Virus record (IMG/VR): IMGVR_UViG_3300038314_001498
DNA: 64,000 nucleotides
Direction: 5' to 3' (one strand)
From: an uncultured virus (IMG/VR IMGVR_UViG_3300038314_001498)
Lineage: Duplodnaviria > Heunggongvirae > Uroviricota > Caudoviricetes > Crassvirales
A program made the position numbers and the translations under genes. Position 1 is the stretch's first letter. Each line of letters begins with the position of its first letter. Below are positions 7,112 through 48,791 of the stretch, piece by piece. The notes under the pieces are model-generated. The model had not been told where the DNA came from and searched no databases. It saw only the letters and a program-made list of their open reading frames with translations.

Positions 7112-7167
7112 AATTCAAAATTTATTTATTATTAATCGCTTCGTCATACAACAATGTATAACAAAAA

Positions 7168-7392: not shown

Positions 7393-7485
7393 AATTATTG
7401 CTTATTTATCTTTAACTTTTGTTATACAAATCCGTTGTGAGTCATTGCACAAGTGACGTAAATCAGCCTTTTAAAATTTAGATGT

Positions 7486-31645: not shown

Positions 31646-31648
31646 GGA

Positions 31649-32221
31649 TTACATATTCATAAAATTTGGCCATTGGAAATTATCAAAAAAAGAAGATTCT
31701 GAACTTGGTGTAGATTCCATATTCCTACCAGCATACATCATACTAGCACCTATACCGCGTATGCCAGACCAAATATCTTGTCTGTTAGTTTGTATCATAT
31801 TGTTAAGACCTTGTACATCACCCATGTAACGTGCTTCATCCATACCTTGTATGCGTTTTTCATCTTGTGCTATCGCATACTGTTTTTTATTTATCTGGTC
31901 GTCTAAGTAAACTCTAGCTTCTCGGTTAGCATTATTGTTTTGTGCCGCTATCATTGGTAGACTAGACATAACACTTCTTGTTCCGCCTGCTCTTGCTGCA
32001 TCTATAAGCATTGCACTAGTGCGTTGGTTTTCTTCTCGCATAAGATCACTTCCCTCGGTACTAATACTTATTTCTTCAAAAGCATTGGTAAGTTCTGGCA
32101 CTTCTAAGTTGTCTAAAGCTTTTTGCGCCTTGTTTTTTCCTATAATGCCACCAATGGTCTGTCCTATTCCCATTGCGCCACCTACACCTGCAGTTATTGC
32201 TGCTGTCGTTCCTATAGCCAA
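31649..32221 (-). CDS. small ejection protein
   Basis: Gly/Ala-rich hydrophobic N-terminus typical of podovirus DNA-injection proteins. Confidence 0.65.
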   Translation of the reverse strand: MAIGTTAAITAGVGGAMGIGQTIGGIIGKNKAQKALDNLEVPELTNAFEEISISTEGSDLMREENQRTSAMLIDAARAGGTRSVMSSLPMIAAQNNNANREARVYLDDQINKKQYAIAQDEKRIQGMDEARYMGDVQGLNNMIQTNRQDIWSGIRGIGASMMYAGRNMESTPSSESSFFDNFQWPNFMNM

Positions 32222-32365
32222 AATTATTACATTTAGTATTAAAAATATAGACTAAAAATAGAATTTATCTATCGTTTTTACAAATCTAATAAATAAAAAG
32301 TATTAATTAATTATACTTATACTATTAATTATTAATATTTTAGATGTAAATAAATAAGATTAACC

Positions 32366-32599
32366 ATGGGAATGACACAAATACGTATCTCAAAAGATAA
32401 GATTAAGTCCACCAATGCTTTTAGCAATCTTAGTCCTATACAGAAACAATTAACTGTTAAGCGTAATAACGTGCTACAAATAGAAAACGCTATTAATGTT
32501 ATAAGTAATAGAGGTTATGTGTATTGGCATAAGAACAGTAATTACTCTTATCATAACATTAGAATTATAGATGAGATTATTGATAATGATTTGCATTGA
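32366..32599 (+). CDS. hypothetical protein at the distal end of the array
   Basis: ORF track. Confidence 0.5.
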   Translation: MGMTQIRISKDKIKSTNAFSNLSPIQKQLTVKRNNVLQIENAINVISNRGYVYWHKNSNYSYHNIRIIDEIIDNDLH

Positions 32600-32631
32600 T
32601 TTCTGGATGCGTCCGCAGGCGATTAGCCTAC

Positions 32632-32821
32632 AACGTATTTGGCTATGATTAGTAGCGTGAAATAGTAAATAACCTTAATAAATAAACGATGAAAAAAACA
32701 GACGAATATTACCAAGCATTAGAAGTTTGTAATAATGCTAAAGATTACCATAATATGGATGTAATGGTTGCAAGAACCTACGTAAGAGCGTATGATGAAG
32801 CTATTAATTATAGCCATTGTT
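32632..32821 (+). repeat. attC-like site 1
   Basis: GGCTATGATTAGTAGC / GCTATTAATTATAGCC arms. Confidence 0.85.
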
Positions 32822-32997
32822 GTAAAAGCGATAGCGAGCAGTTGGTTTGCGATGTAGATTATCTAAACAACTTTACTAAAGACACAAAATACTTATGTAA
32901 GCCTGACGGTAATAAACACTTTGAAGTAGAAGATGACTTTGGGTGTTTGTATAAAGTACATAGGAAATGTTTTAAAAAAAACAGAGTAGCAAACTAA
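32689..32997 (+). CDS. fusion-type ORF crossing the GTT at 32819
   Basis: Junction peptide EAINYSHCCKS. Confidence 0.65.
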   Translation: MKKTDEYYQALEVCNNAKDYHNMDVMVARTYVRAYDEAINYSHCCKSDSEQLVCDVDYLNNFTKDTKYLCKPDGNKHFEVEDDFGCLYKVHRKCFKKNRVAN

Positions 32998-33005
32998 TTG
33001 TTTAC

Positions 33006-33062
33006 AACGTACTTGTATAACTTATCGTTGTGAGGTACGAGCAATGGAAGTTATACGGTGTT
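33006..33062 (+). repeat. attC-like site 2 (57 bp, canonical size)
   Basis: GTATAACTT / AAGTTATAC arms. Confidence 0.85.
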
Positions 33063-33134
33063 ATTTGGCGAGGTACGAGCGAACTGTTTAACCCTTAAAA
33101 AAGGCGTGGCTTTTCAAAAGCCAAATTATAGATT

Positions 33135-33713
33135 ATGAGTGAAAAAAAATATAAAATTATTTACGCAGATCCAGCTTGGTCTTATAGAGATGGTTCTTTA
33201 AGTCGTGGTGGTGCAAAAAGGCATTATGATACAATGACCGATGAAGAAATTAAACAGTTACCTATAAATGATATAGCAGACGATGACAGTATTTTATTTA
33301 TGTGGGCAACATTTCCTAAAATACAAGAAGGATTAGATGTTATAAAATCTTGGGGATTTGAGTATAAAACAATAGGATTTGTATGGATTAAAACCAATAA
33401 GCGATTTAATAAAAATCAAACATCATTTATGCCTTTAGAAAGTCTTGATGTTTTTTGGGGAATGGGAAGATGGACAAGAAGTAATACAGAAATATGTTTA
33501 ATAGGCGTAAAAGGTAAACCTTTAAGAGAAAATGCAGATGTGCATAGTGTTGTAGTTTCTGAAATACAAAAGCATAGCAAAAAGCCAGACGAAATAAGAG
33601 ATATGATAGTTAGATTATGTGGCGATTTACCAAGAGTTGAACTATTTGCAAGAAATGAAACTAAAGGTTGGGATGTTTGGGGAAATGAGGTTGAAACAAG
33701 TATAGCAATATAG
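33135..33713 (+). CDS. MT-A70 family adenine methyltransferase (cassette)
   Basis: IIYADPAW, LFMWAT, WGFEYKT, HSKKPD, VELFAR. Confidence 0.9.
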   Translation: MSEKKYKIIYADPAWSYRDGSLSRGGAKRHYDTMTDEEIKQLPINDIADDDSILFMWATFPKIQEGLDVIKSWGFEYKTIGFVWIKTNKRFNKNQTSFMPLESLDVFWGMGRWTRSNTEICLIGVKGKPLRENADVHSVVVSEIQKHSKKPDEIRDMIVRLCGDLPRVELFARNETKGWDVWGNEVETSIAI

Positions 33714-33866
33714 CCTAAATATGCATTATACATTTGTGTATGGTGCGTTTTTATGGCACGTATGAGTGGTCGCCAATTTTTTAATAATTATTGCAACGGC
33801 TTGTGTATGGTTTGAAAGCCAACGCACAAACTCTGATTAAATGAACTAATATTAACTTGGCTTTTT

Positions 33867-34350
33867 AACGTTGAGCGTATGAAACGTAGCGTTTAGAAAA
33901 ACAGAAACTTTGAATAAAATACAGAATTAATAATAAAATTTTAGCGATGGAAATTACGGAAATTAAAAACATTGTAAATAGTGACTTACCAGACCAATAT
34001 AAAGAAAGGGCTTTATTAAAGGTGTTGGCAAAAGATGATGATATTATACCAAATATGTTAGAAATCTTAAAAATTGAACGAGAGACGAAAAAAGACTTAC
34101 TAACTGATATTAATCTTGAATTATCAAGAGCGCATTTATACATTGAAAGAGCAGACGTTAAAAAAGATGACAAGCAATTTAGCAAATCTTTTGTGTTGGA
34201 TGAAATAGCCTCTTTCTATGTTAAATACAAAGGAAGAATAAGCCATTGTTTTAATAGATTTAACTGAGCGGAAAGGCAATTTTATTATGAGCAAATACAC
34301 ACTTACTAACGTTTTAAGCACTTACATAGCTATGTTTTATACGCATTGTT
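33867..34350 (+). repeat. attC-like site 3 (whole gene in loop)
   Basis: GCGTATGAAACGTAGC / GCTATGTTTTATACGC arms. Confidence 0.85.
33947..34267 (+). CDS. hypothetical protein in attC-like loop
   Basis: 106 aa ORF between the arms. Confidence 0.65.
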   Translation: MEITEIKNIVNSDLPDQYKERALLKVLAKDDDIIPNMLEILKIERETKKDLLTDINLELSRAHLYIERADVKKDDKQFSKSFVLDEIASFYVKYKGRISHCFNRFN

Positions 34351-34404
34351 ATGTACTGGCGCAACTAACCGTTTTGAGTGCGTACAGATATTGCGCTTGT
34401 ACAT

Positions 34405-34521
34405 AACGTTAAACGTGTATGGCAAGTTGCCTTCACGGAATTTAATAAATACTTAAACAACTTTAGAATTATGAATACAAATAACAAAAAAACAGAAAAG
34501 CAATTTGCTATACACGGTGTT
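34405..34521 (+). repeat. attC-like site 4
   Basis: CGTGTATGGCAAGTTGC / GCAATTTGCTATACACG arms. Confidence 0.85.
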
Positions 34522-34707
34522 ATAAGCCGTTTATCTATGCAAGAAGTATTGAATTATGAAATACACTCACATTGGTTAGCGAGTTGGATTGGATTTGAAT
34601 GGGGGCAAGATTTAATGGGTAAATACTTCGCTTGGAAAGTAAGAAGAAAATACAATAGATATTTAGTTTCATTGGAAGAACGTAAGCGTGTTTTAAATGG
34701 CTTATAA
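34471..34707 (+). CDS. fusion-type ORF crossing the GTT at 34519
   Basis: ATG in the loop; junction KQFAIHGVISR; stop inside TAAC. Confidence 0.65.
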   Translation: MNTNNKKTEKQFAIHGVISRLSMQEVLNYEIHSHWLASWIGFEWGQDLMGKYFAWKVRRKYNRYLVSLEERKRVLNGL

Positions 34708-34906
34708 CGTACTAGCATAAAATTTGAAACGGAAAAATGAAACAATACATATTAAAATACACTATAAAACTTTGGTATAGAATGACCTTTGAAAATAACA
34801 AATACGCTAAACAACTATTTGAATTAATTGAAGGATTCTATGAAGTTACAGAAAACTATATTTCTTTAATAATACACAAAAGTAGTTTTTGATTTTATGC
34901 ATTGTT
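34706..34906 (+). repeat. attC-like site 5
   Basis: GCATAAAAT / ATTTTATGC arms. Confidence 0.8.
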
Positions 34907-34964
34907 ATGTTTTAGTTGCGCTCTAAAGCGTAACACTTGCGTACTAATTGGCGCAATTAAACAT

Positions 34965-35252
34965 AACGGTCTGCGTGTATGGGATGTGATTTGCAAATAA
35001 TAAAATAACATTGAATTAATAACTAAAAAAGAGAGCGATATGGAATTTGAACTACAATATGAATTACAAGAATTTAGAGAAATACAAGACCAATATTTTG
35101 ACGAAGATGGCAAGTGCTACAACCGACATATTTTAAGCACCGACATTGCGGAAAAAATGCTGAACTTAATTAACAATCTTAGCGAACGTGTAAATGAACT
35201 CGAACCTGTGATTAAGCAACAAATTAAAAAATCATTGCCTATACACGATGTT
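34965..35252 (+). repeat. attC-like site 6
   Basis: CGTGTATGGGATGTGATTT / AAATCATTGCCTATACACG arms. Confidence 0.8.
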
Positions 35253-35420
35253 ACCCAATGTTTGCCCTAAGATAGCAGAGAGTTTAAAGAATGGCAAAGA
35301 AATATGGGAATTACTAGACAAGAAAATACCAACATTTATAACTGGAACGAATTTAAGTATGAACGAGCTTTTTTCCTAGAAAAATTTATGGAAGATAGAA
35401 ATAGGGCAAATTTTGGGTAA
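35040..35420 (+). pseudogene. fusion-type ORF with an in-frame TAA at 35268-35270
   Basis: The frame stays open for 49 more codons to the TAA in GGGTAAC. Confidence 0.55.
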
Positions 35421-35702
35421 CGAAAAGTTTATGAATAGTGCGTGAAATAATAACTAAAATTAGTAAAAATGGAAAATAAGAAATGGTGGATTAAATTTAA
35501 AAATAGTAAATGGCGATTAATTGCTTTATGTGTAGGCTCTTTAGTAGTTGGAACACAAATGTTTTTAATACCAAAAACGGTAAGTGAAATTGTAATAAGA
35601 GGCATTGGTGTTCTATGGATATTAGAAGGCATTTCTTATTCTTTTGACTTATGGATTAGACACTTAAATAAGCGAAAAGAAGCATTATTTATAAACGGTG
35701 TT
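35419..35702 (+). repeat. attC-like site 7
   Basis: GTTTATGAATAGTGC / GCATTATTTATAAAC arms. Confidence 0.85.
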
Positions 35703-35852
35703 GTAGGTAGTTATAAAAGTAAACCTTATGCCGACTTATGTAAGTTAAGAAAAGAAAAGATTGAGGATTTGAAACGACTTGAAAAAGTAATGAAAGACAT
35801 TTGTGCAGACGTTGGCAAATATACCGACACTGGTGGTAATTACAAACCCTAA
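35469..35852 (+). CDS. fusion-type ORF: two-TM N-module plus coiled C-module
   Basis: Junction EALFINGVVGSY at GTT 35700. Confidence 0.65.
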   Translation: MENKKWWIKFKNSKWRLIALCVGSLVVGTQMFLIPKTVSEIVIRGIGVLWILEGISYSFDLWIRHLNKRKEALFINGVVGSYKSKPYADLCKLRKEKIEDLKRLEKVMKDICADVGKYTDTGGNYKP

Positions 35853-35860
35853 TTACCTAC

Positions 35861-35983
35861 AACGCAGTTGTGTATGGTATGTTGTGTATAAACAGACATA
35901 AATTATCGAATTAAAAACTAAATAAATTAATAATAACAAGCCTTTGAAATAGCAGTAATTAGCAATAGACTATACACGTTGTT
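35861..35983 (+). repeat. attC-like site 8
   Basis: GTGTATGGTATGTTG / CAATAGACTATACAC arms. Confidence 0.8.
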
Positions 35984-36021
35984 AACTACTGTGCGACATT
36001 GGAAAAACAAAAACTTAATAA

Positions 36022-36441
36022 ATGAAAAACTTACTTTGGTTAGACGACATTAGAAACCCTTTTTTAAATGAAGAAGGAAAAGTACCAACAGATAAAAATG
36101 GTGAATACTATAATATAAACTGGGTTTTAAATTACGATCAGTTTGTAAAATGGATAGAACTTTTCGGATTGCCTGATGCAATTTCTTTTGACCACGATTT
36201 AGCCGATGAACATTATACACCTGAATATTTTTGGGATAACTATGAAGAAAGTAAAAAGTTTCAAGAATGGCGTGGGCAAAATTACCAAGAGAAAACAGGT
36301 ATGGATTGTGCTAAATGGTTAGTAGATTATTGTATGGGTAACGAAAAGAAATTGCCTGAAATATTCGTACACTCTGCAAACCCAGTTGGTGCTGATAATA
36401 TAAAAGGGTTGTTAGATAACTTCATTAAGCATTGTAGTTAA
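36022..36441 (+). CDS. cyclic-phosphate-processing receiver-like domain protein (cassette)
   Basis: LLWLDDIR, ISFDHDL, TGMDCAKWL, VHSANPVG. Confidence 0.8.
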   Translation: MKNLLWLDDIRNPFLNEEGKVPTDKNGEYYNINWVLNYDQFVKWIELFGLPDAISFDHDLADEHYTPEYFWDNYEESKKFQEWRGQNYQEKTGMDCAKWLVDYCMGNEKKLPEIFVHSANPVGADNIKGLLDNFIKHCS

Positions 36442-36655
36442 CGGAATTGTATAAGATTAGTTACGTGAAATAAGCACAAACCAAAATAAATAAACGATGA
36501 AAAAGCCAAAAAATTTAACATTAAAAAACTATTGGGAAGCAAACAGTTCTTGGGAAAGACAAGAGATTGTAGAAAATACCTTTAAATATTTAAATTTTTT
36601 AGAACAAAAACTTAATAAATTAACCAACACTAAGTAATTAATTTTATACGGTGTT
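36440..36655 (+). repeat. attC-like site 9 (46 aa ORF 36497-36637 in loop)
   Basis: GTATAAGATTAGTTAC / GTAATTAATTTTATAC arms. Confidence 0.85.
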
Positions 36656-36722
36656 GGTTGGCGAAGCGGACTGTAATTATTAAAAAATTGGCGTTGCTGA
36701 GGCACGAAGCAAAATTAAGAGT

Positions 36723-37544
36723 ATGAGTAAGAAAAAAATAATAGGTTGGGTAAGTTGCGGAATTACAAGCGCAGTAGCTTGTAAACAAGCAATTATGAAA
36801 TACGGTAAAGACAAAATTGAACTTTACTATATGAAGATTGACAGCGCACACCCAGACAATGACAGGTTTTTAAAAGACCTTGAAAAATGGTATGATTTAC
36901 CAATAACCACAATTAGAAGCGATAAATACAAAGACCAATTTGAAGTTATAGAACATACTGGTTATGTAAATGGTGCTGAAGGTGCAAGATGTACTTTAGA
37001 GTTAAAGAAGAAAGTACGTTGGGGAATTGAAGAAAATATTGATTTCTCTGCTCAAATATTTGGATTTGAATTTGTACCAAAAGAAGTGAATAGAGCATTA
37101 CGATTTAATGAACAATACCCAAAAGCAAAAGCAATATTTCCATTAATTGAAACTTATCTAACAAAGGAAAATTGCGCTGAAATATTACGATTTGCAAACA
37201 TAGAATTACCAACGATGTACAAACTTGGTTATCCAAATAATAATTGTATTGGATGCGTAAAAGGTGGAATGGGTTATTGGAATAAAATACGTGTTGATTT
37301 CCCAGAACACTTTGATAAAATGGCAAAAGCTGAACGAGTTGCAGGATTTAGTTGTTTGAAAACCGAAAAAGAGGGAAGAATATTTTTAGATGAATTAAAC
37401 CCAAAAAGAGGAAGAAAGATGAAAGTTGTAATGCCAGACTGTGGAACTTATTGCGAGGTTGAATTTGAAGGAATAGAACACCCTATGTTAAAGAAAATAT
37501 TAGATAAGGAAGTAAATATTGAGCAATTAAGATTGGTTATCTAA
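36723..37544 (+). CDS. PAPS-reductase-like (PP-loop) phage protein (cassette)
   Basis: SCGITSA, ARCTLELKK, NNNCIGCVKGG motifs. Confidence 0.75.
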   Translation: MSKKKIIGWVSCGITSAVACKQAIMKYGKDKIELYYMKIDSAHPDNDRFLKDLEKWYDLPITTIRSDKYKDQFEVIEHTGYVNGAEGARCTLELKKKVRWGIEENIDFSAQIFGFEFVPKEVNRALRFNEQYPKAKAIFPLIETYLTKENCAEILRFANIELPTMYKLGYPNNNCIGCVKGGMGYWNKIRVDFPEHFDKMAKAERVAGFSCLKTEKEGRIFLDELNPKRGRKMKVVMPDCGTYCEVEFEGIEHPMLKKILDKEVNIEQLRLVI

Positions 37545-37820
37545 AGCCTAAATATGCAATATATACAGCCGTATATGGTGCGTTTTTATGGCGCGTATGA
37601 GTGGTCGCCAATTTTTTAATAATTATTGCAACCAACGTTTGCGTACATGAATAGTAGCCCTTAAAAAGACTGAACTTTGGTTAAGCATTTATAAGCAACT
37701 ATTTATTTTTTGAGGGTTGGCAAATGGCGATAGCCAAATATTTATAATATTATTAAATAAAACTTGTATATATCATATATATAATGTATATTTGAATATT
37801 ATTAAATAAAACTTAAAATT

Positions 37821-38042
37821 ATGACTACTCAAATTAAAGAAAGAATCAATCTTATTAACGAACAAATAATTGAATTAGGACAAGCTAAAGTTGCTTCTGA
37901 TAGAGGTATATCTCAAGTTAAAAAAGAGCAATTAGTTAAGGATATTGAAATGTTACACAACCTTAAACAAACTTTAGTTAAACTTTCTAAAAAGATGGTG
38001 TTATCTACAAGTGAATTAGAATTTGTAAAAGAGATATTATAA
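37821..38042 (+). CDS. hypothetical protein in attC-like loop
   Basis: Preceded by a TTG...TATATTTG Bacteroidota promoter (37764-37794). Confidence 0.65.
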   Translation: MTTQIKERINLINEQIIELGQAKVASDRGISQVKKEQLVKDIEMLHNLKQTLVKLSKKMVLSTSELEFVKEIL

Positions 38043-38182
38043 TGAGAAAGCTTATAGACATACCAGAAGAAGATAATACTCTTGAAAATTTACAGATACT
38101 AGCTATTAAAGCAAAAAAGGATTTGAAAAATTATATCCAAGATGTTTTAATTGAACACGCTAAAAAGGGTGGGGAAAAATAA
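38042..38182 (+). CDS. 46 aa RHH-like DNA-binding protein
   Basis: MRKLIDIPEE...LQILAIKAKKDLKNYIQDVL, translated by eye; coupled to the previous stop. Confidence 0.55.
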   Translation: MRKLIDIPEEDNTLENLQILAIKAKKDLKNYIQDVLIEHAKKGGEK

Positions 38183-38309
38183 GTAGTTGCGTTGCTGATA
38201 AGACCGAACCATTGATAAAGCACTTACTTAGGCTATTATTTATGTACGGTGTTAGTAACTGGCGGTTTAATACCCGCCAGAGTGAGTTACCGTAAAACCG
38301 CTTGTTACT

Positions 38310-38503
38310 AACGTTAACGTGTAACAGTAGTAGTGTGAAATAATAACTTAAATTAACAAAAATGAAAAAACCAAAAATTACAGATTTTATTAAAGAAACA
38401 ATTGCCAACCCAAGTATTGAGTTGATGTACTTAAAAGACTATGTAAAAGAATTAGAAGCTTATGTAGATAAACAAGAAGAAGCTATTACTGTTACACATT
38501 GTT
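38310..38503 (+). repeat. attC-like site 11
   Basis: GTGTAACAGTAGTAG / CTATTACTGTTACAC arms. Confidence 0.85.
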
Positions 38504-38658
38504 GTGCACAGTTGCCGACTTTTGATGAAAGTAATTTAAATAAAAACGAATACGCTGATGATGTGCAAAAAACAATACACAATAACCTTTGTAAACCATC
38601 TTATAAGATTGGGTGGCAAAACTGCTATGCTTGGCTAAAACAAGAACTAAAGAAGTAA
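38362..38658 (+). CDS. fusion-type ORF crossing the GTT at 38501
   Basis: Junction EAITVTHCCAQL. Confidence 0.65.
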   Translation: MKKPKITDFIKETIANPSIELMYLKDYVKELEAYVDKQEEAITVTHCCAQLPTFDESNLNKNEYADDVQKTIHNNLCKPSYKIGWQNCYAWLKQELKK

Positions 38659-38671
38659 GGCAATTGTTTAC

Positions 38672-38876
38672 AACGGTATGCAGATATGAATAGATTTTTT
38701 AACGATTAAACACAAAACAAATGAACGAATTAGAACAGATTTTTACAGAAATGCTAAACCATATAGACGACCATAAGGAATCATACGATAAGTCACAATG
38801 GACAAATGAAGCTATTGTTAAGACTTGGATAAAGACTAACGAAAGTAAGTTGAAAAATTTATTTATATCTGGTGTT
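38672..38876 (+). repeat. attC-like site 12
   Basis: CAGATATGAATAGATTTTT / AAAAATTTATTTATATCTG arms. Confidence 0.85.
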
Positions 38877-39041
38877 ACAAACTGTGCGATTCTTGAAACT
38901 ATGCATCAGCAAGTATTCACAGAATTTCACAACCTTAGAAAGCAAAAAGGAAACGCAAGGTATATACAAATAGATGGCAAAGAAGCAAATGAGATTATTA
39001 GACTTGGTAAGTTAGCGACTAAAAAAGAGCATTGTTTGTAA
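38721..39041 (+). CDS. fusion-type ORF crossing the GTT at 38874
   Basis: Junction NLFISGVTNCA; stop inside TAAC. Confidence 0.65.
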   Translation: MNELEQIFTEMLNHIDDHKESYDKSQWTNEAIVKTWIKTNESKLKNLFISGVTNCAILETMHQQVFTEFHNLRKQKGNARYIQIDGKEANEIIRLGKLATKKEHCL

Positions 39042-39162
39042 CGGCTATTGTATGAGTAGTAGCCGATTAGAATCACAGAAGTATCGAATTAGAAATTAAC
39101 TTAATAAATAGTAATAGTTTTAAAACCAAGCACTGCAACGGCTATTACTTATACAAATTGTT
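39040..39162 (+). repeat. attC-like site 13
   Basis: TTGTATGAGTAGTAGCCG / CGGCTATTACTTATACAA arms. Confidence 0.85.
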
Positions 39163-39180
39163 GTAGTGCGTTATTTAGCG

Positions 39181-39555
39181 ATGGAAACAGCAGAAATTAA
39201 AAAAACCGTATTAGAAATAAGAAAAAAAGCAATTAATGTTGCTTGTGCTTTAAAAGGATTTAAAGAAGAAGATTGTTATGAAACGGTTTTTGAAGAAGAT
39301 GAGATTGAGGTAGTTTTTTCTTGGAATAGTGGGTGTAGTTGTTGTTCTGATGAGGAACAAAGAGTTTACGTGAAATACGAAGAATTAACGCAAGACATTG
39401 AGGCTCTTAAAAAAGAAAAAGAACAACAACGTATAGAAGAAAAAAGAAAGAAGGATGAGGCAGAAAAGTTAAGAAAGCAAAAAGAAGCTGATGCCAAGAA
39501 AAAACGGGAAGAAGCAGAATATTTAAGATTAAAGAAGAAGTTTGAAAGTGCGTAG
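39181..39555 (+). CDS. hypothetical coiled-coil protein (cassette)
   Basis: ATG at 39181, in frame with the GTT at 39160; ends EYLRLKKKFE. Confidence 0.65.
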   Translation: METAEIKKTVLEIRKKAINVACALKGFKEEDCYETVFEEDEIEVVFSWNSGCSCCSDEEQRVYVKYEELTQDIEALKKEKEQQRIEEKRKKDEAEKLRKQKEADAKKKREEAEYLRLKKKFESA

Positions 39556-39568
39556 GCTAATGCACTAC

Positions 39569-40050
39569 AACGGACAAGCATAAGAGCAGTGCGTGATTAA
39601 GCACAGAACTAAATTAATATTAACAAGCCTTTCCGCTTCTTTTTCTTTTGAGCGTGGGCAAAAAACCAAAATTATGGACTTAAAAATTAGAGAAGATGCC
39701 TACAAAATGGCAATTGAAAAATGGGGTGCAAAAGCACAATTGGAAATGGCACAAGAAGAAGCTACTGAACTTGCACTTGCCGTTAGAAAACACATTCGTA
39801 AAAATGATGAAACCAGCTTTAGCAACTTGGTTGAAGAAATTGCAGACGTTGAAATTATGATTGAGCAAATTGTAATGATGCATAATGATTTTGGTTTTAG
39901 GCAAATGGTAGATGCACAAAAAGCATTTAAGATTAGTAGACTACTTAAACGGATGAACGAGAACTCTTTTGAAGCGTTGGAAAAAGAAAAAGAAGCTACC
40001 GAGTAGTTTGCAAATAGACACGACACTAAGCATTGCTTTTATGCAGTGTT
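39569..40050 (+). repeat. attC-like site 14 (MazG-like gene in loop)
   Basis: GCATAAGAGCAGTGC / GCATTGCTTTTATGC arms. Confidence 0.85.
39674..40006 (+). CDS. MazG-like NTP pyrophosphohydrolase
   Basis: AQEEATELALA...LVEEIADVEIMIEQ. Confidence 0.8.
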   Translation: MDLKIREDAYKMAIEKWGAKAQLEMAQEEATELALAVRKHIRKNDETSFSNLVEEIADVEIMIEQIVMMHNDFGFRQMVDAQKAFKISRLLKRMNENSFEALEKEKEATE

Positions 40051-40073
40051 GTAGTGTCGTTTTAATGCACTAC

Positions 40074-40144
40074 AACGTAAAAGCATATGGTTTCGGTTGC
40101 CTTAACCGTACTAATGCTTCGGCAACTGAACTATATGCGGTGTT
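40074..40144 (+). repeat. attC-like site 15 (71 bp)
   Basis: GCATATGGTTTCGGTTGCC / GGCAACTGAACTATATGC arms. Confidence 0.85.
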
Positions 40145-40223
40145 GGTTGGCGCAGCGGACTGTAATTATTAAAAAATTGGCGTGCCTGACGTTAGGAAGG
40201 CAAATTACGTAATACTTTTAAAA

Positions 40224-40472
40224 ATGAAATCACTATTTAAAGAAATACAAGAAGAACATTTACCATCTGGTATTAAAGAAATGATGGCTTATGCACTTTA
40301 CGAAAACAAAAACAAACTTCAAGCTGTTTTAAATTATCTAAAAAAGGAAAATGCTAAAAATAAAAGTTCAAATATCAAAAACTCAATAGACCACTTAAAT
40401 TACATACTAAAAGAATATTATCACGATACAAAATCATTTAAAGATGGACAAAAAGAACATTTATCTAACTGA
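40224..40472 (+). CDS. hypothetical protein (cassette)
   Basis: ATG at 40224. Confidence 0.55.
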   Translation: MKSLFKEIQEEHLPSGIKEMMAYALYENKNKLQAVLNYLKKENAKNKSSNIKNSIDHLNYILKEYYHDTKSFKDGQKEHLSN

Positions 40473-40704
40473 AAGTTTAAGCGGATTAATGGCGGGTGAA
40501 AGGATTAAAGCTAATAGTTTTAAAGAAGCTGAAAATAAATGCCCTGATGGGTATAGAGTTATTGGTAAGTTTATATGTGAAATAAACGCTCCTGAATTTG
40601 ACAATATAAACTTGAATTAGCAAATATGATTTATATGCAGCCGTATATGAAGCGTTTTTGCTTGCGTTTGAGTGGTCGCCAATTTTTTAATAATTATTGC
40701 AACC

Positions 40705-40957
40705 AACGTATTTGTATAACCGTTGTTACGTGAATTAAAAACTTAAAATTATAAAAATGAACGAAAGACAAAACAAAATAGCAAAAAGAGCAGATAAACT
40801 GCAAGAAGATTTACAAAGTATAATTAATGTAGGGAAAAAAGTAAAAGGTAGTGAAGCTCATTACATTGATTTTGTAACTGCCTTTTTTATACACAGAATA
40901 GCTGCACTAGAAATTGAATTAGAAAACCTAAAAAAGTAATAACGGTTATACATTGTT
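40705..40957 (+). repeat. attC-like site 16
   Basis: GTATAACCGTTGTTAC / GTAATAACGGTTATAC arms. Confidence 0.85.
40757..40939 (+). CDS. hypothetical protein in attC-like loop
   Basis: Stop codon lies in the right arm. Confidence 0.6.
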   Translation: MNERQNKIAKRADKLQEDLQSIINVGKKVKGSEAHYIDFVTAFFIHRIAALEIELENLKK

Positions 40958-40983
40958 GTATGACGAAGTGAACAGTAAAAATT

Positions 40984-41163
40984 ATGGAATTAGAAACAAT
41001 AATAACAAAAGATAAAGAGCAATTTTTACAAAAAGAAAAACCTTGGTTTCATTGGCGAAGTTTTAAAGCATTTAGAAAATTTATGGAAGAAGATGCTGTT
41101 GAGTGTAAAAATTGTGGGACTTGGTATTGGGAAGGATGTAATAAGAGATGTGATTGCAAATAA
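40984..41163 (+). CDS. 59 aa Cys-rich protein (cassette)
   Basis: ...VECKNCGTWYWEGCNKRCDCK, translated by eye. Confidence 0.55.
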   Translation: MELETIITKDKEQFLQKEKPWFHWRSFKAFRKFMEEDAVECKNCGTWYWEGCNKRCDCK

Positions 41164-41177
41164 TTTTTATTGCATAC

Positions 41178-41305
41178 AACGTTTAGTATAAGAATAGTAG
41201 CCGAGCAAACAGGTAAAAAAATTGAGTTAAACAAATAATTAATAAGTAAGTAAGTAATAGCCTCTAAAAAGACCTATAACAAGGCTATTATTTTTATACA
41301 TTGTT
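41178..41305 (+). repeat. attC-like site 17
   Basis: GTATAAGAATAGTAGCC / GGCTATTATTTTTATAC arms. Confidence 0.85.
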
Positions 41306-41321
41306 ATAGGGCGTTTTTATT

Positions 41322-41537
41322 ATGAAGTACATAAATGTAAACAAAATAATTGCTGCCGATATTTTAGAACCTTATGAAAATAGCGGTGAAAGTTGGGATA
41401 TTGGAAGTACAAGAGGATGGCAAGTTTCATTTTTATTAGGATATAGAGAAGGCTATCCAGAATGGATTTTAGTAGATAAAGAAACTAAAGAAGATTGTAT
41501 AAAACTTATTGAATCGTTTGGGTTAAATGCCCTATAA
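41322..41537 (+). CDS. hypothetical protein (cassette)
   Basis: Fills GTTATAGGGCGTTT...AAATGCCCTATAAC; stop inside TAAC. Confidence 0.65.
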   Translation: MKYINVNKIIAADILEPYENSGESWDIGSTRGWQVSFLLGYREGYPEWILVDKETKEDCIKLIESFGLNAL

Positions 41538-41658
41538 CGGTTTTGTATAAGCGCAGTAGCGGATTTTATGCAACTGCTATTCGGTTAAAATGAAACTTAA
41601 ATATAAACAAAAACGGTTCAAGTTTGCACCTGAACCGCTATTGCGTTTATACCATGTT
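41536..41658 (+). repeat. attC-like site 18
   Basis: GTATAAGCGCAGTAGCGG / CCGCTATTGCGTTTATAC arms. Confidence 0.85.
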
Positions 41659-41866
41659 ATGCCATGTCATCTCTCTTCCATATTTTTTTAATTAATGGTT
41701 TCATAATATGAACATTTAAAATATAAGTTATGGGTGTACATATTACAATACCGATTAAATACCATATCAGATTATTTGCGGTACAACCGTGAATGATAAA
41801 TGTAAATAATAGAATAACACAAGTTTGGAAGAAGGCATTTTTCAGTTCTAACCACCTAATTCGCAT
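41657..41866 (-). CDS. small two-TM protein (possible immunity protein)
   Basis: Overlaps the end of the Gly-zipper gene; stop inside minus-strand TAAC. Confidence 0.55.
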   Translation of the reverse strand: MRIRWLELKNAFFQTCVILLFTFIIHGCTANNLIWYLIGIVICTPITYILNVHIMKPLIKKIWKRDDMA

Positions 41867-42618
41867 CGAACACCTTCTTCAACCGCGCCAACAACAGCAC
41901 CTCGTACCATGCCAACTATCATACCACCCATGCATCCGGCCGCAACAGACCCAGGGTTAAAACCTAAAAATGCACCAGTAATGCAGCCACGAACAAAACC
42001 TTGTGCTGCACCGAATAACGCTCCCCAAGCGGCACCTTTAACTGCTCTGTCGGCACAATTATCCTTTTGATAAACTCTAAGAGTATAATAGTCATAAATC
42101 CCATCAAAAGCAGCTATAACTGGCATAAATCTTTCTTCTAGTTGTTCATTTGAATTTGAAATAGCATTAAGAAAATTTTCTTTTTCTGTATCGAAATATA
42201 GCATAAAACCATCCAAATCGTCTCGGTTGTAATAATCAAGAGTTTTGGTTAAAAATTCTTTTTCAAGTTCTGAAATATTCATATTCTCAATCTCTTGTTC
42301 GCTGAGAAAAGTTACCATTTCTTGGTTATAAACTGTTGCTACTTCTGGTGATGATTCGTACAAAGAAGTTTCGAACAATTCGAAAACATCATTGGAAATT
42401 GCTTCATTTGTAGGTATAGATTTATAGTCTAAATTTTCGGAAGCAAGCAGGTTATTATACAAATTTGTTTTTATAACCTCATAAATATTGTTACTTTTAG
42501 TAAGATGACTTTGTTGGAATTTACTATTGTCATTTGCAATATCATCTTCACTACAACTATTAAATGTAAGTGCCATAAAGAACATTAAAAACGGCACGTA
42601 TTTCCCAAATTGTTTCAT
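41848..42618 (-). CDS. lipoprotein with a C-terminal glycine-zipper (bacteriocin-like) domain
   Basis: Signal peptide plus SCSEDD lipobox; GAAWGALFGAAQG...GGMIVGMVRGAVVGA. Confidence 0.7.
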   Translation of the reverse strand: MKQFGKYVPFLMFFMALTFNSCSEDDIANDNSKFQQSHLTKSNNIYEVIKTNLYNNLLASENLDYKSIPTNEAISNDVFELFETSLYESSPEVATVYNQEMVTFLSEQEIENMNISELEKEFLTKTLDYYNRDDLDGFMLYFDTEKENFLNAISNSNEQLEERFMPVIAAFDGIYDYYTLRVYQKDNCADRAVKGAAWGALFGAAQGFVRGCITGAFLGFNPGSVAAGCMGGMIVGMVRGAVVGAVEEGVRCELGG

Positions 42619-42879
42619 TTTAAATAAGATTTATGTCGCTTTATCCTAACTTTTAAGCGACTATTTTAATTATGTTTCTTAACTCACTTCGCAGTGCAAT
42701 CAAACTGTTGTTTTGAAGCTCGGCTACTCGATTATTTTAAATGGTTTTTCGCTTTCACATACTCCATTTTGGATTTGGATTGTCAGCCCCATAATAACTT
42801 TGTTTTATTTGTTATCAAAATTAAAAATGACGTTCTAAAAAACTATTTAAAGGTTTGCTAAAATGCTGTTAATGATATG

Positions 42880-42923
42880 GCATAACTAAAGAATAACTAC
42901 ACCAAACAAAAAACTTAATAATA
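42880..42923 (-). other. putative attI-like site
   Basis: The last AAC has no attC stem; minus strand reads GTAGTTATTCTTTA-GTTATGC; lies just upstream of the recombinase. Confidence 0.55.
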
Positions 42924-43724
42924 ATGTGCAATTCAAAAAACATAAGTGTTGTTTTAAAAGAGTTTGAACAATTACTACAGCTAAAATACTCTGGTAGAAC
43001 ACCTGCAAACTATCTTTATCATGTAAAACTATTTTTAAACTATTCTGATAACGTTCCGTTAAGAGTAAATAATGAGGATATACTTAATTACAATATATCA
43101 ATAAGAAATAAAAGCAATAGTTTTAGAAACGTGGCTATAAATGCTATAAAGTCTTATTTTAAGTTGTACCTTAGAAAGCAAGTTAAAGGTTTTAGTTCCA
43201 TTAGACCACCAAAAGAATACAAAAAGCCAAAAGTATATGATTGTTATATTTTAAGTGAAAAGATACAAAATATAGAAAACAAAAAACACAAGGCAATACT
43301 AGCTTTATCTCTTTGCTGTTGGCTCAGAAAATCCGAACTTTTAAATATAAAAATATCGGATATTAATGGTAGCTTAATGACGTTGAAAATAAACCAATCA
43401 AAAGGCTGTAAAGATAGAGTTGTTATTATAAGTGAAAACACAATTAATATTTTAAGAGAATATCATAAAGAATACAAACCAAAAGAATATTTATTTGAAG
43501 GGTTAAATGGTGGTAAATATAGCTCTACGAGTGTAGATAAAATAACTAAGAAGTATCTTTATAAAGACATGAGATTTCATTCATTAAGGGCTTCAGGTGC
43601 TACATTTGCATTAAGTAACGGAACAGATCTAAAAACAGTTTCTAAAATACTAGGTCACAAACACATTCAAACAACGGAATATTACATTCCTATACTTTAT
43701 AAAACTATTAAACAAGCGATATGA
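42924..43724 (+). CDS. compact tyrosine recombinase (integron-integrase/XerD-like)
   Basis: YS.RT..NY N-domain; LRKSE, SKGCKDR, FHSLRAS, LGHK, TTEYY catalytic set; no arm-binding domain. Confidence 0.9.
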   Translation: MCNSKNISVVLKEFEQLLQLKYSGRTPANYLYHVKLFLNYSDNVPLRVNNEDILNYNISIRNKSNSFRNVAINAIKSYFKLYLRKQVKGFSSIRPPKEYKKPKVYDCYILSEKIQNIENKKHKAILALSLCCWLRKSELLNIKISDINGSLMTLKINQSKGCKDRVVIISENTINILREYHKEYKPKEYLFEGLNGGKYSSTSVDKITKKYLYKDMRFHSLRASGATFALSNGTDLKTVSKILGHKHIQTTEYYIPILYKTIKQAI

Positions 43725-44137
43725 GTTTTAATGTCCGACTTACAACTATAAATGATTACCCAGAACTTATAACCTGGTGGAAATGGCATCGTTGGTCCAA
43801 CCCACCTTCAATAGAGCTATTAGATAATCTTAAGTTTGGTATTATGGTTAGCCAAGGATATGAAAATATTTGTGCTGGATTCATTTACTTTACAAATGCA
43901 CGAGCCTTCGGACTATTAGAATATGTCATATCTAATCACAAAGTAAAAAACAAAGCCGTTAGGAAAGAAGCTTTAAAACTACTTGTAGCATCGTTAATAG
44001 ATATAGCTAAAAAAAAAGGAATGAATACTATTATTACTTTTGTAAAACAGCCTAACTTAATAAATACATTATCAGAGTGTGGTTTTATAAAATCTGCAGA
44101 AGGATATAGTAGTATGGTATTTAAACATAACTCTTAA
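43721..44137 (+). CDS. GNAT-like phage protein
   Basis: VRLTTINDYPELITWW...ICAGFIY...CGF fold pattern. Confidence 0.6.
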   Translation: MSFNVRLTTINDYPELITWWKWHRWSNPPSIELLDNLKFGIMVSQGYENICAGFIYFTNARAFGLLEYVISNHKVKNKAVRKEALKLLVASLIDIAKKKGMNTIITFVKQPNLINTLSECGFIKSAEGYSSMVFKHNS

Positions 44138-47100
44138 CCAAATTCATACTAACAGCAAACAATTCGTTTTGTAATCCACCACTACTACTTAATTCAGCTT
44201 CTAAATAATAACCTCTAATTTCAGCACCTTCTATACGAGCATTTTTTAATGCATATACAAAATTATTAACTATAGGTGTGTTTGCCAACGCATCTACAGT
44301 TATAATCCCTGTACTTCTGTCAATAGCGGTAATAGTGCCTAATTCTTCTTGTAAACCACCATTAATCTGATATAAATCATCACCTATACTTACAGAGTCA
44401 TTTATCCTTGAAAAAGTAATTTGCAAAGTGTCTAAAGCTGTTATATTTCCTATACCAAAACTTCTGCGATTAATATCTGATGAACTTTCATTTTGCCTTA
44501 AATAAGCAAACCATCGACTTTCTTTTTGGTTAAATTCTGAACTAGATATACTTCCTTGACTTAGATTATTTTCAAAATCCACTGACCAAGCTCGATCAGA
44601 TTCTAATACGCAGGCTTTATAAATCTTGTCTATTTGATGTGATTCGTTAAAAATAGTAGTAACCTTGGCCTCATAAGAAATATTATAAAAAATACATGTC
44701 GTAGATCCTGTATGATGTTGCCAAAGCTCACCATCTTTTATTGTATAAAACGTATTGTTTAGCTTAACTATCCAATCTGGCAAATAACTATAAAATGAAG
44801 TCCATCCTTTTACTTTTTCATCAAAACTAAGTGTATTACCATCTAGGCTTACAACGTATTGTCCTGTATGGTTATCGTAACCACCTAAGATTAAATCTAA
44901 GGTATCAGATTTAAATACGTCTCTAAACCAATCACGCATACCAAAATTGCTAATAATTTCAATACCACTTCTACCTTTTCTTAACATTACCCCTCTTCTA
45001 GCGTCAGCCCAATACGTATAATTACCATACACAGCTAAACTTTCTGGATGCGTACTTATACCAAACTCACCAGCATAAGGTCTTATGTTCTTTAAAATAT
45101 CTTCAGACTTAACAAGGTTTTCATTATTAGATTGGTCATATAAAACAGAACTGTCATAAAATACTTGGGTTACTTTATCTTCTTGGTACACATCTAAATC
45201 TGTATTCCATGACACCATACGCTGTATAGAACCATAAGCATCATCCAGGTCTTTAAAGTTTTTTAAAGATAAATTAAACTCATTTAAAGCGTTATAATTT
45301 GTGGTCTGTTCAAACACACCTCCCCAAGTATAAGATGCGATACGCTTATTCTGTCTATAATCCTCAATAGGTGTGCTGCTACGACTATCCATTTTCATGG
45401 TTCGCGCATTAAACTCATCACGTATTTTATAACTCTCAAAACCATTACCCCAGCTTATACAATTAAAAATTGGTAATATAAATTCACCACTCACACCATC
45501 CTCTTGGTCGGTATCATTTTCGTCAAAACCTAAATGATAACCTTCTTCATCAATAACATAAGTTCTTCCAATTTCAAAAAACTGATCTAAGTCTAAATCT
45601 GCTGATTCTATTTCTTTTTCAAAAATAGGCAACTGCTCTAAAGAACGAACTTCGATATAACTATCACTATATACGTCTCTACTAGAATTTCTACTATCTC
45701 GTCTCGATTTTATAAGCAAAATATCATATTCACCAGACGAATTGATTTCAATATTATGTGTAATTCTACCAAAATAGTTTACTTCAGTTAAATTTGCTTT
45801 TCTAAACCAGAATTTATCTAATGTCTGGTCAAAATCAGATTCAGCAGCGATTTGTGTATAGATTTCATCGCCATAGTACCACTCTTCTAAACTTTCATAA
45901 TCTGCACTACTTATAAAGTCTAAAGTAAAACGATCTATGTCATCACTGTTCTCTTTTTTTGAGTAGTATTTTAAGGTTATAATACTTCCTATTGTTATAG
46001 TATCGTTATATCCATACAACGCGTAAGAGTGGTTATCTTCATCAGCAGAAAACCCTAGATTAACTTTTACTAACCAATTGTCATTTGGCCCATGACCTGT
46101 AGTAGCTGCAAACGTAATATCGACATCTGCATCTAAAGCTTGTGATGCACCTGTAATAGCATATCCTTCACCAGTATTATCATCCCAACTACTATATGTA
46201 CCGTCAGTCTGCTGGGTACGCCATCTAAAAGTGTCTGTAGCACCTGTGCTAAATATCTCTATTTCATATCGTAAATCAGCACTACCACTATATAAAGAGT
46301 TGGCTGTAATATCATTTAAAGTGTCTCCTTTAAAAACAACAGAAACATGATCCAATCCTTCATTTGTCATACGGTCACTGTTCTCACTCTTGTCATAATC
46401 TAATAGTTCAAAAAAACTATAAGAATCCTCATCAAAACGTACATCTTCATTCAGTATAGATGTTTTTATATAAAAACCTTCTGGCTGACCACCATTATCC
46501 TCGCTTATAAAATCTTTATCCTTACGATCTACCTCTAACACTTTTAACTTAACAATGTTAGACTTTATCTCTTCAGTATCAGCTTTTACAATTAGAAAAT
46601 CATTTTCCTTTACCTTATCTACATCACTAGCTTGGATATAAAAATAGATGTAATTTGTTTCCGTAAAGAATAAAGTAGGTACAATTGTCTCGTACTCTTG
46701 CTTACTCTCTTTTATAAAAAAGCGACAATATTTTGCAAAACACGGTGCTTTATTAGGAATAATAACTTTTATACGGTTCTGCAATATGGATTCATCATTA
46801 TCAAAACGTATGGTATTGGTATCACTTGTTAACGGTGTAGTCATACGTCCAAACCCATCCAAATAGACTCTGGCAATCTCGTAATCTCTATTAGTTTTTA
46901 AACTTTGTGTAGCAGTACCTTCTCCAATAGCATCCTGTACTTTTTCTAATGTAAAGTCTGTAGAAAAAGGTGAGTCGTCACACTCTATAAGGTTATAGTT
47001 TTCAGTATAGTTTCCAAAAACAATTGTATTGTTTATTACAGCAATACTCTTTGCTAATAAAGGTACATTGTCGTAAAGTCTAAATAGTTCATCTGGTGGT

Positions 47101-48021: not shown

Positions 48022-48789
48022 CTAATAACTTGTTAAAGTCGTTCCGCTTTCAACGTTTTTAATAATACTATTTCTTACATATATATCAGCATTAGTACTT
48101 CTTATTTCTGCACCAAAAGAATCATCTGTTTTAGTAGCGCAACCATCTAACCACATTTGAGTTGCATCTGTTGAAGTACCACAAGCAAAATCCGATTTGT
48201 TACCAGCAATTGTAGAAGTTGAGTTATACGCTATACAATCTATATTTAAAGACTTTGCATTATTAACATCGTGAACATTTGGACCCTCATTAGAATGATA
48301 TATACCATTTATTCTTAATACAATAGCATCAGAATGCGCTGTGCTACCATTGTTAATTCCTGTAGATGCACCATAGCCATTTTCAAAAGCTACACAATTA
48401 ACCTCAATAGCAATAGTATCGCTATCATAATCAAACCCATCATCAAGATTTCTATATGCAGTGCAATTTTCTAAATAAACTTCTTTACCCGATTTATCGA
48501 ATAGAATACCATTAATGTCTGAATAAATAAAATCGCAATTATAAAATGAATCTGTAGAGTCGTTGCCGCTTAGAAAACTAAAGCCACCTAAAATAGTAAC
48601 GTTATCTAAATTAAACCAAGAAGAAATGGAATCAAATTTAAACTCCCTAGAATTTGATCTACCTGTTATTTTAGAAAGTGAAAAATGGTCTAACCACTCT
48701 TCAAACTCAGAATTGTTTTTTGGAAAATGGTGAATACCCTTTTCATCTTCGACAACTACATAATTGTCTTGAACATAAACTTTATTCAT
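48022..48789 (-). CDS. short tail appendage with a beta-helix-like C-terminus
   Basis: N-terminus paralogous to 48792..50831; NC.AY.N..DGF repeats. Confidence 0.6.
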   Translation of the reverse strand: MNKVYVQDNYVVVEDEKGIHHFPKNNSEFEEWLDHFSLSKITGRSNSREFKFDSISSWFNLDNVTILGGFSFLSGNDSTDSFYNCDFIYSDINGILFDKSGKEVYLENCTAYRNLDDGFDYDSDTIAIEVNCVAFENGYGASTGINNGSTAHSDAIVLRINGIYHSNEGPNVHDVNNAKSLNIDCIAYNSTSTIAGNKSDFACGTSTDATQMWLDGCATKTDDSFGAEIRSTNADIYVRNSIIKNVESGTTLTSY

Positions 48790-48791
48790 TT

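Follow-up and report, generated by a model that had tools for sequence, protein, structure and literature searches.

Can a phage shuffle gene cassettes in the manner of an integron without the integrase by which integrons are defined? The question is raised by a 64,000-nucleotide stretch of DNA from the uncultured virus IMGVR_UViG_3300038314_001498 (hereafter the window), which carries on its + strand an array of structured sites and small genes, followed by a gene for a tyrosine recombinase. A sequence-only reading had taken the array for a series of integron-like cassettes served by an enzyme other than IntI. Integrons are the textbook device of gene capture and reshuffling, and IntI is what defines them. 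In the window and its relatives, we find sites whose structure covaries and whose polarity follows one strand, crossovers at AAC, cassettes that are gained, lost and transferred whole, and an association of the sites with one family of recombinase genes; the finding stands, and its statistical support is overwhelming. The best explanation is a platform that is widespread in phages of marine Bacteroidota and that lies outside the integron family as defined by IntI, yet works like a member of it. We judge it probable that the array is a phage-borne cassette platform working like an integron, with its own enzyme and its own class of sites.

Each of the 19 AAC and 18 GTT coordinates listed in the earlier reading carries the named triplet. 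In all 18 AAC..GTT pairs, an arm that starts 5-6 nt past AAC complements, over 9-23 nt, an arm that ends 2-3 nt before GTT. The recurring 'mismatches' between the arms are always a 5'-arm G opposite a 3'-arm T, at two positions five base pairs apart; given this regularity, the helix is to be read as continuous, with two G·T wobbles. A strict scan (AAC, 4-7 nt, an uninterrupted 14-bp stem with at least 12 Watson-Crick pairs, 2-4 nt, GTT) of the 64 kb returned 13 + strand pairs, all of which lie inside the array and are among the 18; the stems of the other five are shorter or interrupted. The two − strand matches (7150-7434 and 48434-48978) are located outside the array and look like chance. Within 32001-44000, 13 strict sites lie on the + strand and none on the − strand, whereas 100 dinucleotide-shuffled versions gave 0.02 sites on average and never more than one; both the single polarity and the asymmetry of the spacers that had been proposed are borne out. 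A shufflon or other invertible-segment system is ruled out by this single polarity of the sites in the array.

The anatomy of the sites was drawn from 171 distinct strict sites in the window and in 80 viral loci. Their helix is 18-19 bp long and has all four Watson-Crick pair types at nearly every stem position. At two fixed positions G(5')·T(3') reaches frequencies of 34% and 70%, and the reverse T·G is nearly nil. Stem positions 15-20, which lie outside the selection criteria, are paired in 77% of cases vs 39% with shuffled partners. In length, the sites group around 85-88 and 122-125 nt, and those with open reading frames (ORFs) in the loop reach up to 1.4 kb. An independent RNAalifold run on 37 sites of the 123-nt class predicted 23 pairs, 16 of them with compensatory changes, and added a 5-bp basal helix, T-AAC-G / T-GTT-A, that includes another G·T. 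The structure is thus constant while the arms differ, as had been held from the window alone. The resulting plan comprises the 5-bp basal helix, an asymmetric loop and an 18-bp helix that covaries and has G·T wobbles at two fixed positions. With DNA energy parameters, 121 of the 129 compact sites fold more stably as + strand than as − strand, by a mean of 1.9 kcal/mol, an advantage that is partly built into the scan. Judged as integron attC sites, these elements display the AAC/GTT triplets, the asymmetric spacer, a covarying L helix and the variable loop, and lack extrahelical bases.

The mobile unit had been taken to run from GTT to AAC. This has to be corrected: the unit extends from AAC| to the next AAC| (the bar marks the crossover) and consists of the site interior plus the GTT..AAC segment that follows, so every ORF falls inside a single cassette. 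The flanks past AAC and GTT match within a cassette and not within a site: all nine flank positions pair in 30 of 109 comparisons within cassettes, in 2 of 171 within sites and in 27 of 2000 between random partners. The self-complementary ends ascribed to the GTT..AAC segments are present in 14 of the 18 by end-anchored best local alignment (8-20 nt), not in every segment, and carry another G·T wobble about 11 nt in. The segments 36653/37634 and 40142/40705 have common ends, GTTGGTTG/CAACCAAC, and a perfect 20-nt internal inverted repeat. The segment with the MT-A70 gene, earlier set apart as an exception, can be accounted for in part: a previously unlisted AAC (33795-33797) closes its conserved right end, CGCCAATTTTTTAATAATTATTGCAAC, and a 69-nt orphan follows. 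The features of the array are:

32632..42886, + strand: whole array, about 19 units from AAC| to AAC|, of one polarity; ORFs on the + strand except in the last unit
32632..32821, + strand: site 1; its interior holds the start of ORF 32689-32997, which reads past GTT
33006..33062, + strand: site 2, compact, 57 nt; its loop resembles sites upstream of methylase genes in phages phi12:1 and P12002L
33135..33713, + strand: MT-A70 DNA methyltransferase cassette gene
33795..33797, + strand: extra AAC that closes the MT-A70 segment; the 69-nt orphan, 33798-33866, has a left arm only and extends to AAC 33867
33867..34350, + strand: site 3; entire ORF 33947-34267 in the interior
34405..34521, + strand: site 4
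34706..34906, + strand: site 5, with 9-bp arms; ORF 34737-34892 in the interior
34965..35252, + strand: site 6
35419..35702, + strand: site 7
35861..35983, + strand: site 8, 123 nt
36022..36441, + strand: cassette gene encoding a cREC_REC (PF20274) domain; TAA stop codon shared in part with AAC 36440
36440..36655, + strand: site 9; interior 36451-36639 96% identical to Cellulophaga siphovirus phi12:1
36723..37544, + strand: PAPS-reductase-like (phrog_424) cassette gene
37634..38253, + strand: site 10; ORFs 37821-38042 and 38042-38182 inside, the latter with ~76% DNA identity to a Freya cassette gene
38310..38503, + strand: site 11
38672..38876, + strand: site 12
39040..39162, + strand: site 13, 123 nt; ~73% identical to a site of phage phi19:3
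39569..40050, + strand: site 14; gene for a MazG-like NTP pyrophosphohydrolase (ORF 39593-40006) inside
40074..40144, + strand: site 15, compact, 71 nt
40705..40957, + strand: site 16
41178..41305, + strand: site 17, 128 nt
41536..41658, + strand: site 18, 123 nt
41656..42886, + strand: last GTT..AAC segment, with ends GTTATGCCAT / ATGGCATAAC and two − strand ORFs, 41657-41866 and 41848-42618
42884..42903, + strand: armless attI-like site, AAC|TAAAGA-ATAAC-T-ACACC
42924..43724, + strand: recombinase gene, 266 aa, Xer/XerA-like, PF00589 and PF13495

The cassettes hold DNA methylases, the MazG-like enzyme, the PAPS-reductase-like protein and many ORFans. A right end of about 75 nt is common to the units of the MT-A70 gene (33722-33797) and the PAPS-reductase-like gene (37556-37636) and to a two-ORF unit (40628-40707), and a left end of about 40 nt recurs at 36653-36693 and 40142-40182 with the perfect 20-nt inverted repeat TAATTATTAAAAAATTGGCG; these common ends look like a sub-family of cassette termini, and the MT-A70 left end appears to carry a deletion. 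Several GTT..AAC segments of 29-64 nt are 'empty' and consist of a hairpin only (34348-34407, 34904-34967, 38251-38312 and 40048-40076, and 3732-3793 of locus L002). Some have an internal motif, gagtgagtt or cacttgcgtac, in common with their Freya equivalents, and they may be cassettes minus the gene or a second type of structured element. In 4 of the 18 units (34705-34707, 36439-36441, 39039-39041 and 41535-41537), the conserved T and the AA of AAC form a TAA stop codon, and six ORFs that start in a loop (32689, 34471, 35040, 35469, 38362 and 38721) run through the 3' arm and GTT, so that site and coding sequence overlap.

The window itself is AT-rich (G+C ~32%) and belongs to a marine crAss-like phage. 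On the − strand, ORF 44121-48005 matches the crassvirus muzzle protein (PF25731 and PF25729); the nearest cultured DNA matches of the window are Cellulophaga phages. The cassette region forms a + strand island (~32.3-44.1 kb) flanked by blocks of − strand genes. The large ones around it are 22131-30170 (a 2679-aa ORF with no Pfam match), 30173-31645 and the muzzle gene. A 138-aa ORF (43721-44137; phrog_17252, function unknown) overlaps the stop codon of the recombinase gene.

The evidence for movement of the units comes from relatives. The closest cultured homologues of the recombinase are those of Cellulophaga phage Ingeline (67% identity) and Polaribacter phages Freya_1-10 (45%), together with Leef and a truncated copy in Danklef. 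Seven of the ten Freya records were compared and read across the circular origin; Freya_3 and Freya_4, which have the length of Freya_2, and Freya_7, which has that of Freya_6, were left out. These genomes measure 43,978-48,920 bp, are 99.8-100% identical across their shared parts, and have the start of the recombinase gene at record positions that range from 47 to 4144. In coordinates of the Freya_10 array, their arrays comprise:

Freya_1: 1-842
Freya_2: 1-1684
Freya_5: 1-2586
Freya_6: 1-2586 plus a unique 472-bp unit
Freya_8: 1-1684 plus 2587-5784
Freya_9: 1-5477
Freya_10: 1-5784 (the reference)

Apart from one internal loss and one cassette found in a single genome, the arrays are nested in one another. 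At each junction the sequence is ...AAC|ACCCCTATAAC, or else AAC| leads into the next site, and the junction partners have only AAC in common; the sequence ACCCCTATAACAACAATAAG after the junction AAC| is situated 45 nt ahead of the recombinase start. Stepwise gain or loss of units at a target beside the recombinase gene, together with a single internal excision, would produce such a pattern; homologous recombination would not.

Danklef_1 and Danklef_5 are one methylase unit apart from Danklef_3, at a TAAC| junction with a 4-nt overlap, and equal match coverage indicates that Danklef_2 and Danklef_4 are like Danklef_3. Danklef_1 and Freya_10 have exactly one AAC-to-AAC unit in common, 1169 bp at 99.6% identity, between unrelated flanks. 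In three metagenomic groups with recombinase genes 98.7-100% identical (L029/31/32/33, L037/38 and L050/57), the upstream sequences diverge at (A)TAAC| beside AAC|TATCATATATCAACACC; one cassette is target-proximal in L033 and is followed by a further site in L031. The shuffling of cassettes that the earlier reading had inferred is therefore seen as exact AAC| units that vary in Freya, in Danklef and in three metagenomic lineages, and mobility of units bounded by the crossover point is an integron criterion.

In Danklef_1 (L185/L187, record ~40970-41491), the recombinase gene is without its first ~117 codons, similarity to Freya beginning at nt 400 of Freya_1. The missing 5' part is replaced by a − strand ORF with another AAC site before it, as if a unit had been inserted into the recombinase gene or its target site. 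We considered Danklef as a natural knock-out control and rejected it: the gene is truncated, yet Danklef_1/5 and Danklef_2/3/4 differ by one cassette.

The sites are tied to the recombinase gene by their distribution around it. In the 80 viral loci, whose recombinase homologues are 32-67% identical to that of the window, the gene strand has 154 strict sites in 470 kb of upstream sequence, against 11 in 680 kb of downstream sequence, and the opposite strand has 19 in 1.15 Mb. Where at least 2 kb of upstream sequence is available (n = 54), 45 loci have at least one site and 34 at least two. Among 75 bacterial loci, a single one exceeds 37% identity, so close homologues are nearly confined to viral contigs; it is L097, from a Flavobacteriaceae metagenome-assembled genome (MAG), on a contig that begins 41 nt ahead of the gene. 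Bacterial loci with distant Xer-like genes have a low density of sites (33 + and 10 − in 844 kb). The strict scan gave 3-4 + strand matches at each of two loci with such distant genes, L131 and L137 (a Chitinophagaceae MAG and Arenibacter latericius), where the system may exist in a chromosomal or prophage form. Of 79 viral contigs, 11 (L017-19, L034, L039, L050, L056, L057, L071, L080 and L095) end within 400 nt upstream of the gene, probably due to population heterogeneity at the target site.

Two cultured phages carry other recombinases. Ingeline_1 (L020, 1-926 and 9704-10495) encodes a 398-aa integrase in addition to the small Xer-like enzyme, both of them tyrosine recombinases. About two cassettes and an AAC|ACCCACATAAC site precede the gene of the small enzyme, a layout that hints at one recombinase for lysogeny and another for the cassettes. 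Cellulophaga phage phi19:3 (L173, 1641-3349 and 3641-4897) has at least three sites. Its last unit ends ...GCACTCTAAC| about 290 nt before a different tyrosine recombinase, gp036 (418 aa), which was not detected as a homologue of the window enzyme at E 1e-5.

The recombinase of the window has the two-domain Xer-type architecture (PF13495 and PF00589). Among the NCBIfam models it matches XerA_Arch (archaeal XerA) best, with 129.5 bits, a score short of the equivalog cut-off of 220; XerC and XerD follow. The integron integrase model TIGR02249 scores 82.9 bits against a cut-off of 265, with only residues 15-184 aligned to model positions 7-180, and NF011946 reaches 45 bits against 435. In the 62%-identical homologue of L097, model positions 179-258, which we take to be the location of the IntI-specific domain, are unmatched. 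By phmmer, IntI4 (2a3v) aligned to the recombinase only across residues 15-181, so that none of the three comparisons (TIGR02249, NF011946 and phmmer) shows the additional I2 domain of an integron integrase sensu stricto. Sequence and fold searches of the PDB placed XerA (4a8e, 5hxy) first and IntI4 (2a3v) next. The proposal of a non-IntI tyrosine recombinase thus holds, the IntI-specific segment being absent. Passages of PMC7790495 convey that the integron field holds the I2 helix necessary for recombination of single-stranded hairpins. The 36 family members measure 265-286 aa (IntI4: 320), and R135, K160, H219, R222, H245 and Y254 (RKHRHY) are invariant in all 36. Profiles, folds, length and catalytic residues together indicate that the enzyme is probably a simple, active Xer-type recombinase.

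The last AAC of the array (42884) is armless, as had been noted, and lies 40 nt before the recombinase start; the gene had been placed as pointing away from the array, and it runs the same way as the cassette ORFs. If the + strand is taken as the counterpart of an integron's bottom strand, the geometry becomes integron-like. Read along its bottom strand, a classical integron presents its cassettes, the AAC of attI and then intI in sense, and the window has the same order. The armless pattern AAC|N6-ATAWC-N-MCACC precedes the homologous gene in the window, Freya, Ingeline and the metagenomic loci L017-19, and AAC|N6-ATAWC is kept upstream of recombinase genes that are only 42-67% identical. As in an attI-type site, AAC|N6-ATAAC sits 40-56 nt ahead of the start codon, and all Freya and metagenomic variants next to it break there; these variants point to the armless site as the probable site of insertion. 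At 42893, one contig of run X9 (depth ~8) has T for A at the first base of ATAAC.

The resemblance to integrons extends over much of the system. The arrays have one polarity and mostly single-gene cassettes; the sites are defined by structure, with conserved AAC/GTT, an unpaired asymmetric spacer and a variable loop; flanks past AAC and GTT match within a cassette; an armless target directly precedes the recombinase gene; and the variants resemble insertion or loss at the target and internal excision. The crossover, at the AAC of the hairpin 5' end, equals G|TT on the other strand, as described in the main text of Qi et al. (PMC9892861). The differences are a 266-aa XerA/Xer-like recombinase without the IntI-specific segment, G·T wobbles in place of extrahelical bases, ORF-holding loops (the longest site of the window measures 620 nt), cassette ORFs that share the hairpin strand and are directed towards the recombinase gene, and phages of marine Bacteroidota as the carriers.

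These features suggest the following model. A cassette would extend on the + strand from AAC| to the next AAC| and open with a structured site, ordered as AAC-G, a 4-5-nt spacer, the 18-bp helix and its loop (with a 5' untranslated region (UTR), a start codon or whole ORFs), 2 nt and T-GTT; a segment with complementary ends, GTT-x ... x'-AAC, would follow. In an excised circle, x and x' would lengthen the short AAC/GTT helix to a full site. The Xer-like recombinase encoded just downstream would bind the folded + strand, which three or four fixed G·T wobbles would make the better hairpin. We infer that the substrate is a folded single strand, that this recombinase is the catalyst and that one strand is exchanged: the enzyme would cleave at the 5' AAC and swap strands with another site, which would amount to excision, or with the armless AAC|N6-ATAAC before its own gene, which would amount to insertion. 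The outcome would be a store of small accessory genes that is built up and reshuffled.

Other systems resemble the array in part. The hyperplastic regions of T4-type phages have promoter-stem-loop modules, in which small accessory genes flanked by stem-loop repeats are shuffled as modules; these are thought to recombine via homology, with neither a dedicated site-specific recombinase nor a 3-nt crossover. The small accessory genes and repeated stem-loops are common to both, whereas the present sites are linked to a recombinase and have a defined 3-nt crossover. With XerCD/dif and the CTX phage, the array has in common a simple two-domain Xer-type enzyme, and the CTX phage, according to passages of PMC7790495, likewise presents a folded single-stranded hairpin as its site. 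Exploiters of XerCD/dif, however, insert a whole genome into the chromosomal dif through host enzymes; here a phage enzyme is paired with many sites and cassette-sized units. The phage context and the association with arrays argue for a role other than dimer resolution at dif.

The phage setting had been described as one in which integrons are not well known. This needs qualification, as the main text of Qi et al. (2023; PMC9892861) reports a screen of 10,705 phage genomes with IntegronFinder and HattCI that yielded 17 integrase-less clusters of attC sites (CALINs), among them a two-site CALIN in Polaribacter phage P12002L that was read as bacterial integron components. By the present scan, P12002L has at least six sites on the gene strand, flanking methylase and Mom-like genes, and belongs to the present site family; Qi's attC1 is a compact site of this architecture. 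The published CALIN differs in having two sites, and the main text reports neither a phage recombinase nor an attI nor any cassette dynamics. The terms Cellulophaga, Freya and Ingeline are absent from that main text and from its supplement file 1. Bartlau et al. (PMC8776804) regarded the Freya and Ingeline integrases as a sign of temperate potential, and 'cassette', 'hairpin' and 'indel' are absent from the text of their article. The complete system, with its dedicated recombinase, target site and cassette dynamics, was not found described in a full-text literature search, which left most subscription journals outside.

Several observations weigh against an integron-like platform. No experimental or read-level sign of excised circles or of dependence on the recombinase was found. 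The enzyme has no I2 helix, the sites have G·T wobbles where attC sites have extrahelical bases, and part of the folding advantage of the + strand comes from the scan, since it allows G·T. Sites are present in phi12:1 and P12002L, which have no close homologue of the recombinase, and the block shared with phi12:1 (36451-36639) stops inside a site, at neither AAC nor GTT. Cassettes are polymorphic in Danklef despite a 5'-truncated recombinase gene; hence either the enzyme need not act in cis, or the cassettes moved at an earlier time or in trans. Across 31000-45000, contigs from four public runs (X8-X11) are identical to the window and contain no AAC joint; this result is uninformative, because the contigs are fragmented at the repeated cassette ends and the listed joints, with sides of 21-34 nt, are probably from other organisms. 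The relatives G001, in which the array is not covered, and G003 gave no variant of the window array; G003 (L016) is 100% identical over 37741-44200, where its contig ends.

The rival account that fares best keeps the platform and the enzyme and makes the substrate a duplex or cruciform, exchanged in two strands as by Xer at dif, with the hairpin as a mere pseudo-palindromic core. We regard it as unlikely. It fits a recombinase that is Xer/XerA-like and without I2 and sites without bulged bases, and duplex sites are the usual Xer substrates in the relevant part of PMC7790495. The arms, however, vary freely while pairing is kept (all four pair types; 16 of 23 pairs compensatory), a sign that selection acts on folding rather than on a sequence bound as duplex. 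Moreover, the two strands are made unequal by the direction of the G·T wobbles, and the AAC that alone is common to the junctions is far below the 6-8-bp overlap identity of classical exchange.

Somewhat less likely still is that the sites are mainly RNA elements of the coding strand, placed between phage genes with a part in processing, stability or translation, that are shuffled homologously or illegitimately, as has been proposed for the T4-type modules, beside a recombinase that is simply an integrase for lysogeny, in line with its annotation. In mRNA the wobbles would pair as G·U, the loops contain 5' UTRs and start codons, recombinase-free phages also have sites, and the Freya and Ingeline integrases are taken as signs of a temperate lifestyle in the text of Bartlau et al. 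(PMC8776804). Such elements would not, however, explain breakpoints at AAC|, 8 nt outside the stem and with 3-4 nt shared, or an armless AAC target kept ahead of the recombinase gene, and the count of 154 upstream vs 11 downstream sites links the sites with that gene. Ingeline has a second, larger integrase for lysogeny, and no Rfam family matches above threshold, the sole sub-threshold match being a chance one to MIR397 at site 18 (29 vs 55 bits). A role in RNA may nevertheless exist alongside recombination.

It is very improbable that the sites are ordinary integron parts (CALINs) that phages acquired from bacterial integrons and that a bacterial IntI serves: Qi et al. did find their two P12002L sites with HattCI and Infernal, and IntI1 recombined one of them at G|TTAGGC (PMC9892861), a site that overlaps a cassette-end AAC of the present kind, but attC1, the P12002L site of typical architecture, has no verified IntI1 recombinants in their main text, close homologues of the recombinase are nearly all viral (1 of 75 bacterial loci above 37% identity, and a low site density), and the arrays adjoin a dedicated non-IntI gene with its own target site. 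The activity of IntI1 on P12002L is also unusable as support for this site class, since in the same account the active attC2 is atypical and the typical attC1 unverified.

An integron-like platform of the phages' own is thus the reading we retain, and it bears on how these phages evolve. Nearly identical isolates of one bloom differ in their arrays, so the platform is active in nature. It provides a mechanism by which virulent and temperate phages can rapidly replace small accessory genes, anti-defence genes probably among them, and a route by which unrelated phage families with common hosts exchange such genes. It also offers a reason why such regions break metagenomic assemblies (11 of 79 contigs), and it suggests that the 'integrase' of such phages should not be taken as evidence of lysogeny.

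For the integron field, passages of PMC7790495 credit the unique I2 helix of IntI with having enabled hairpin recombination. Phages of marine Bacteroidota show the same layout beside a smaller, Xer-like enzyme devoid of this helix, and they offer an independent system for asking what hairpin recombination requires. A bolder proposal, which we put forward tentatively and with the balance somewhat against it, is that this Xer-like phage family performs integron-type recombination of folded single strands without I2, with G·T wobbles as strand markers instead of bulges. If so, hairpin cassette capture would be possible without the IntI innovation. It would either have been invented twice or survive in phages as a relative of the integron ancestor, which would lend substance to the speculated viral origin of integrons.

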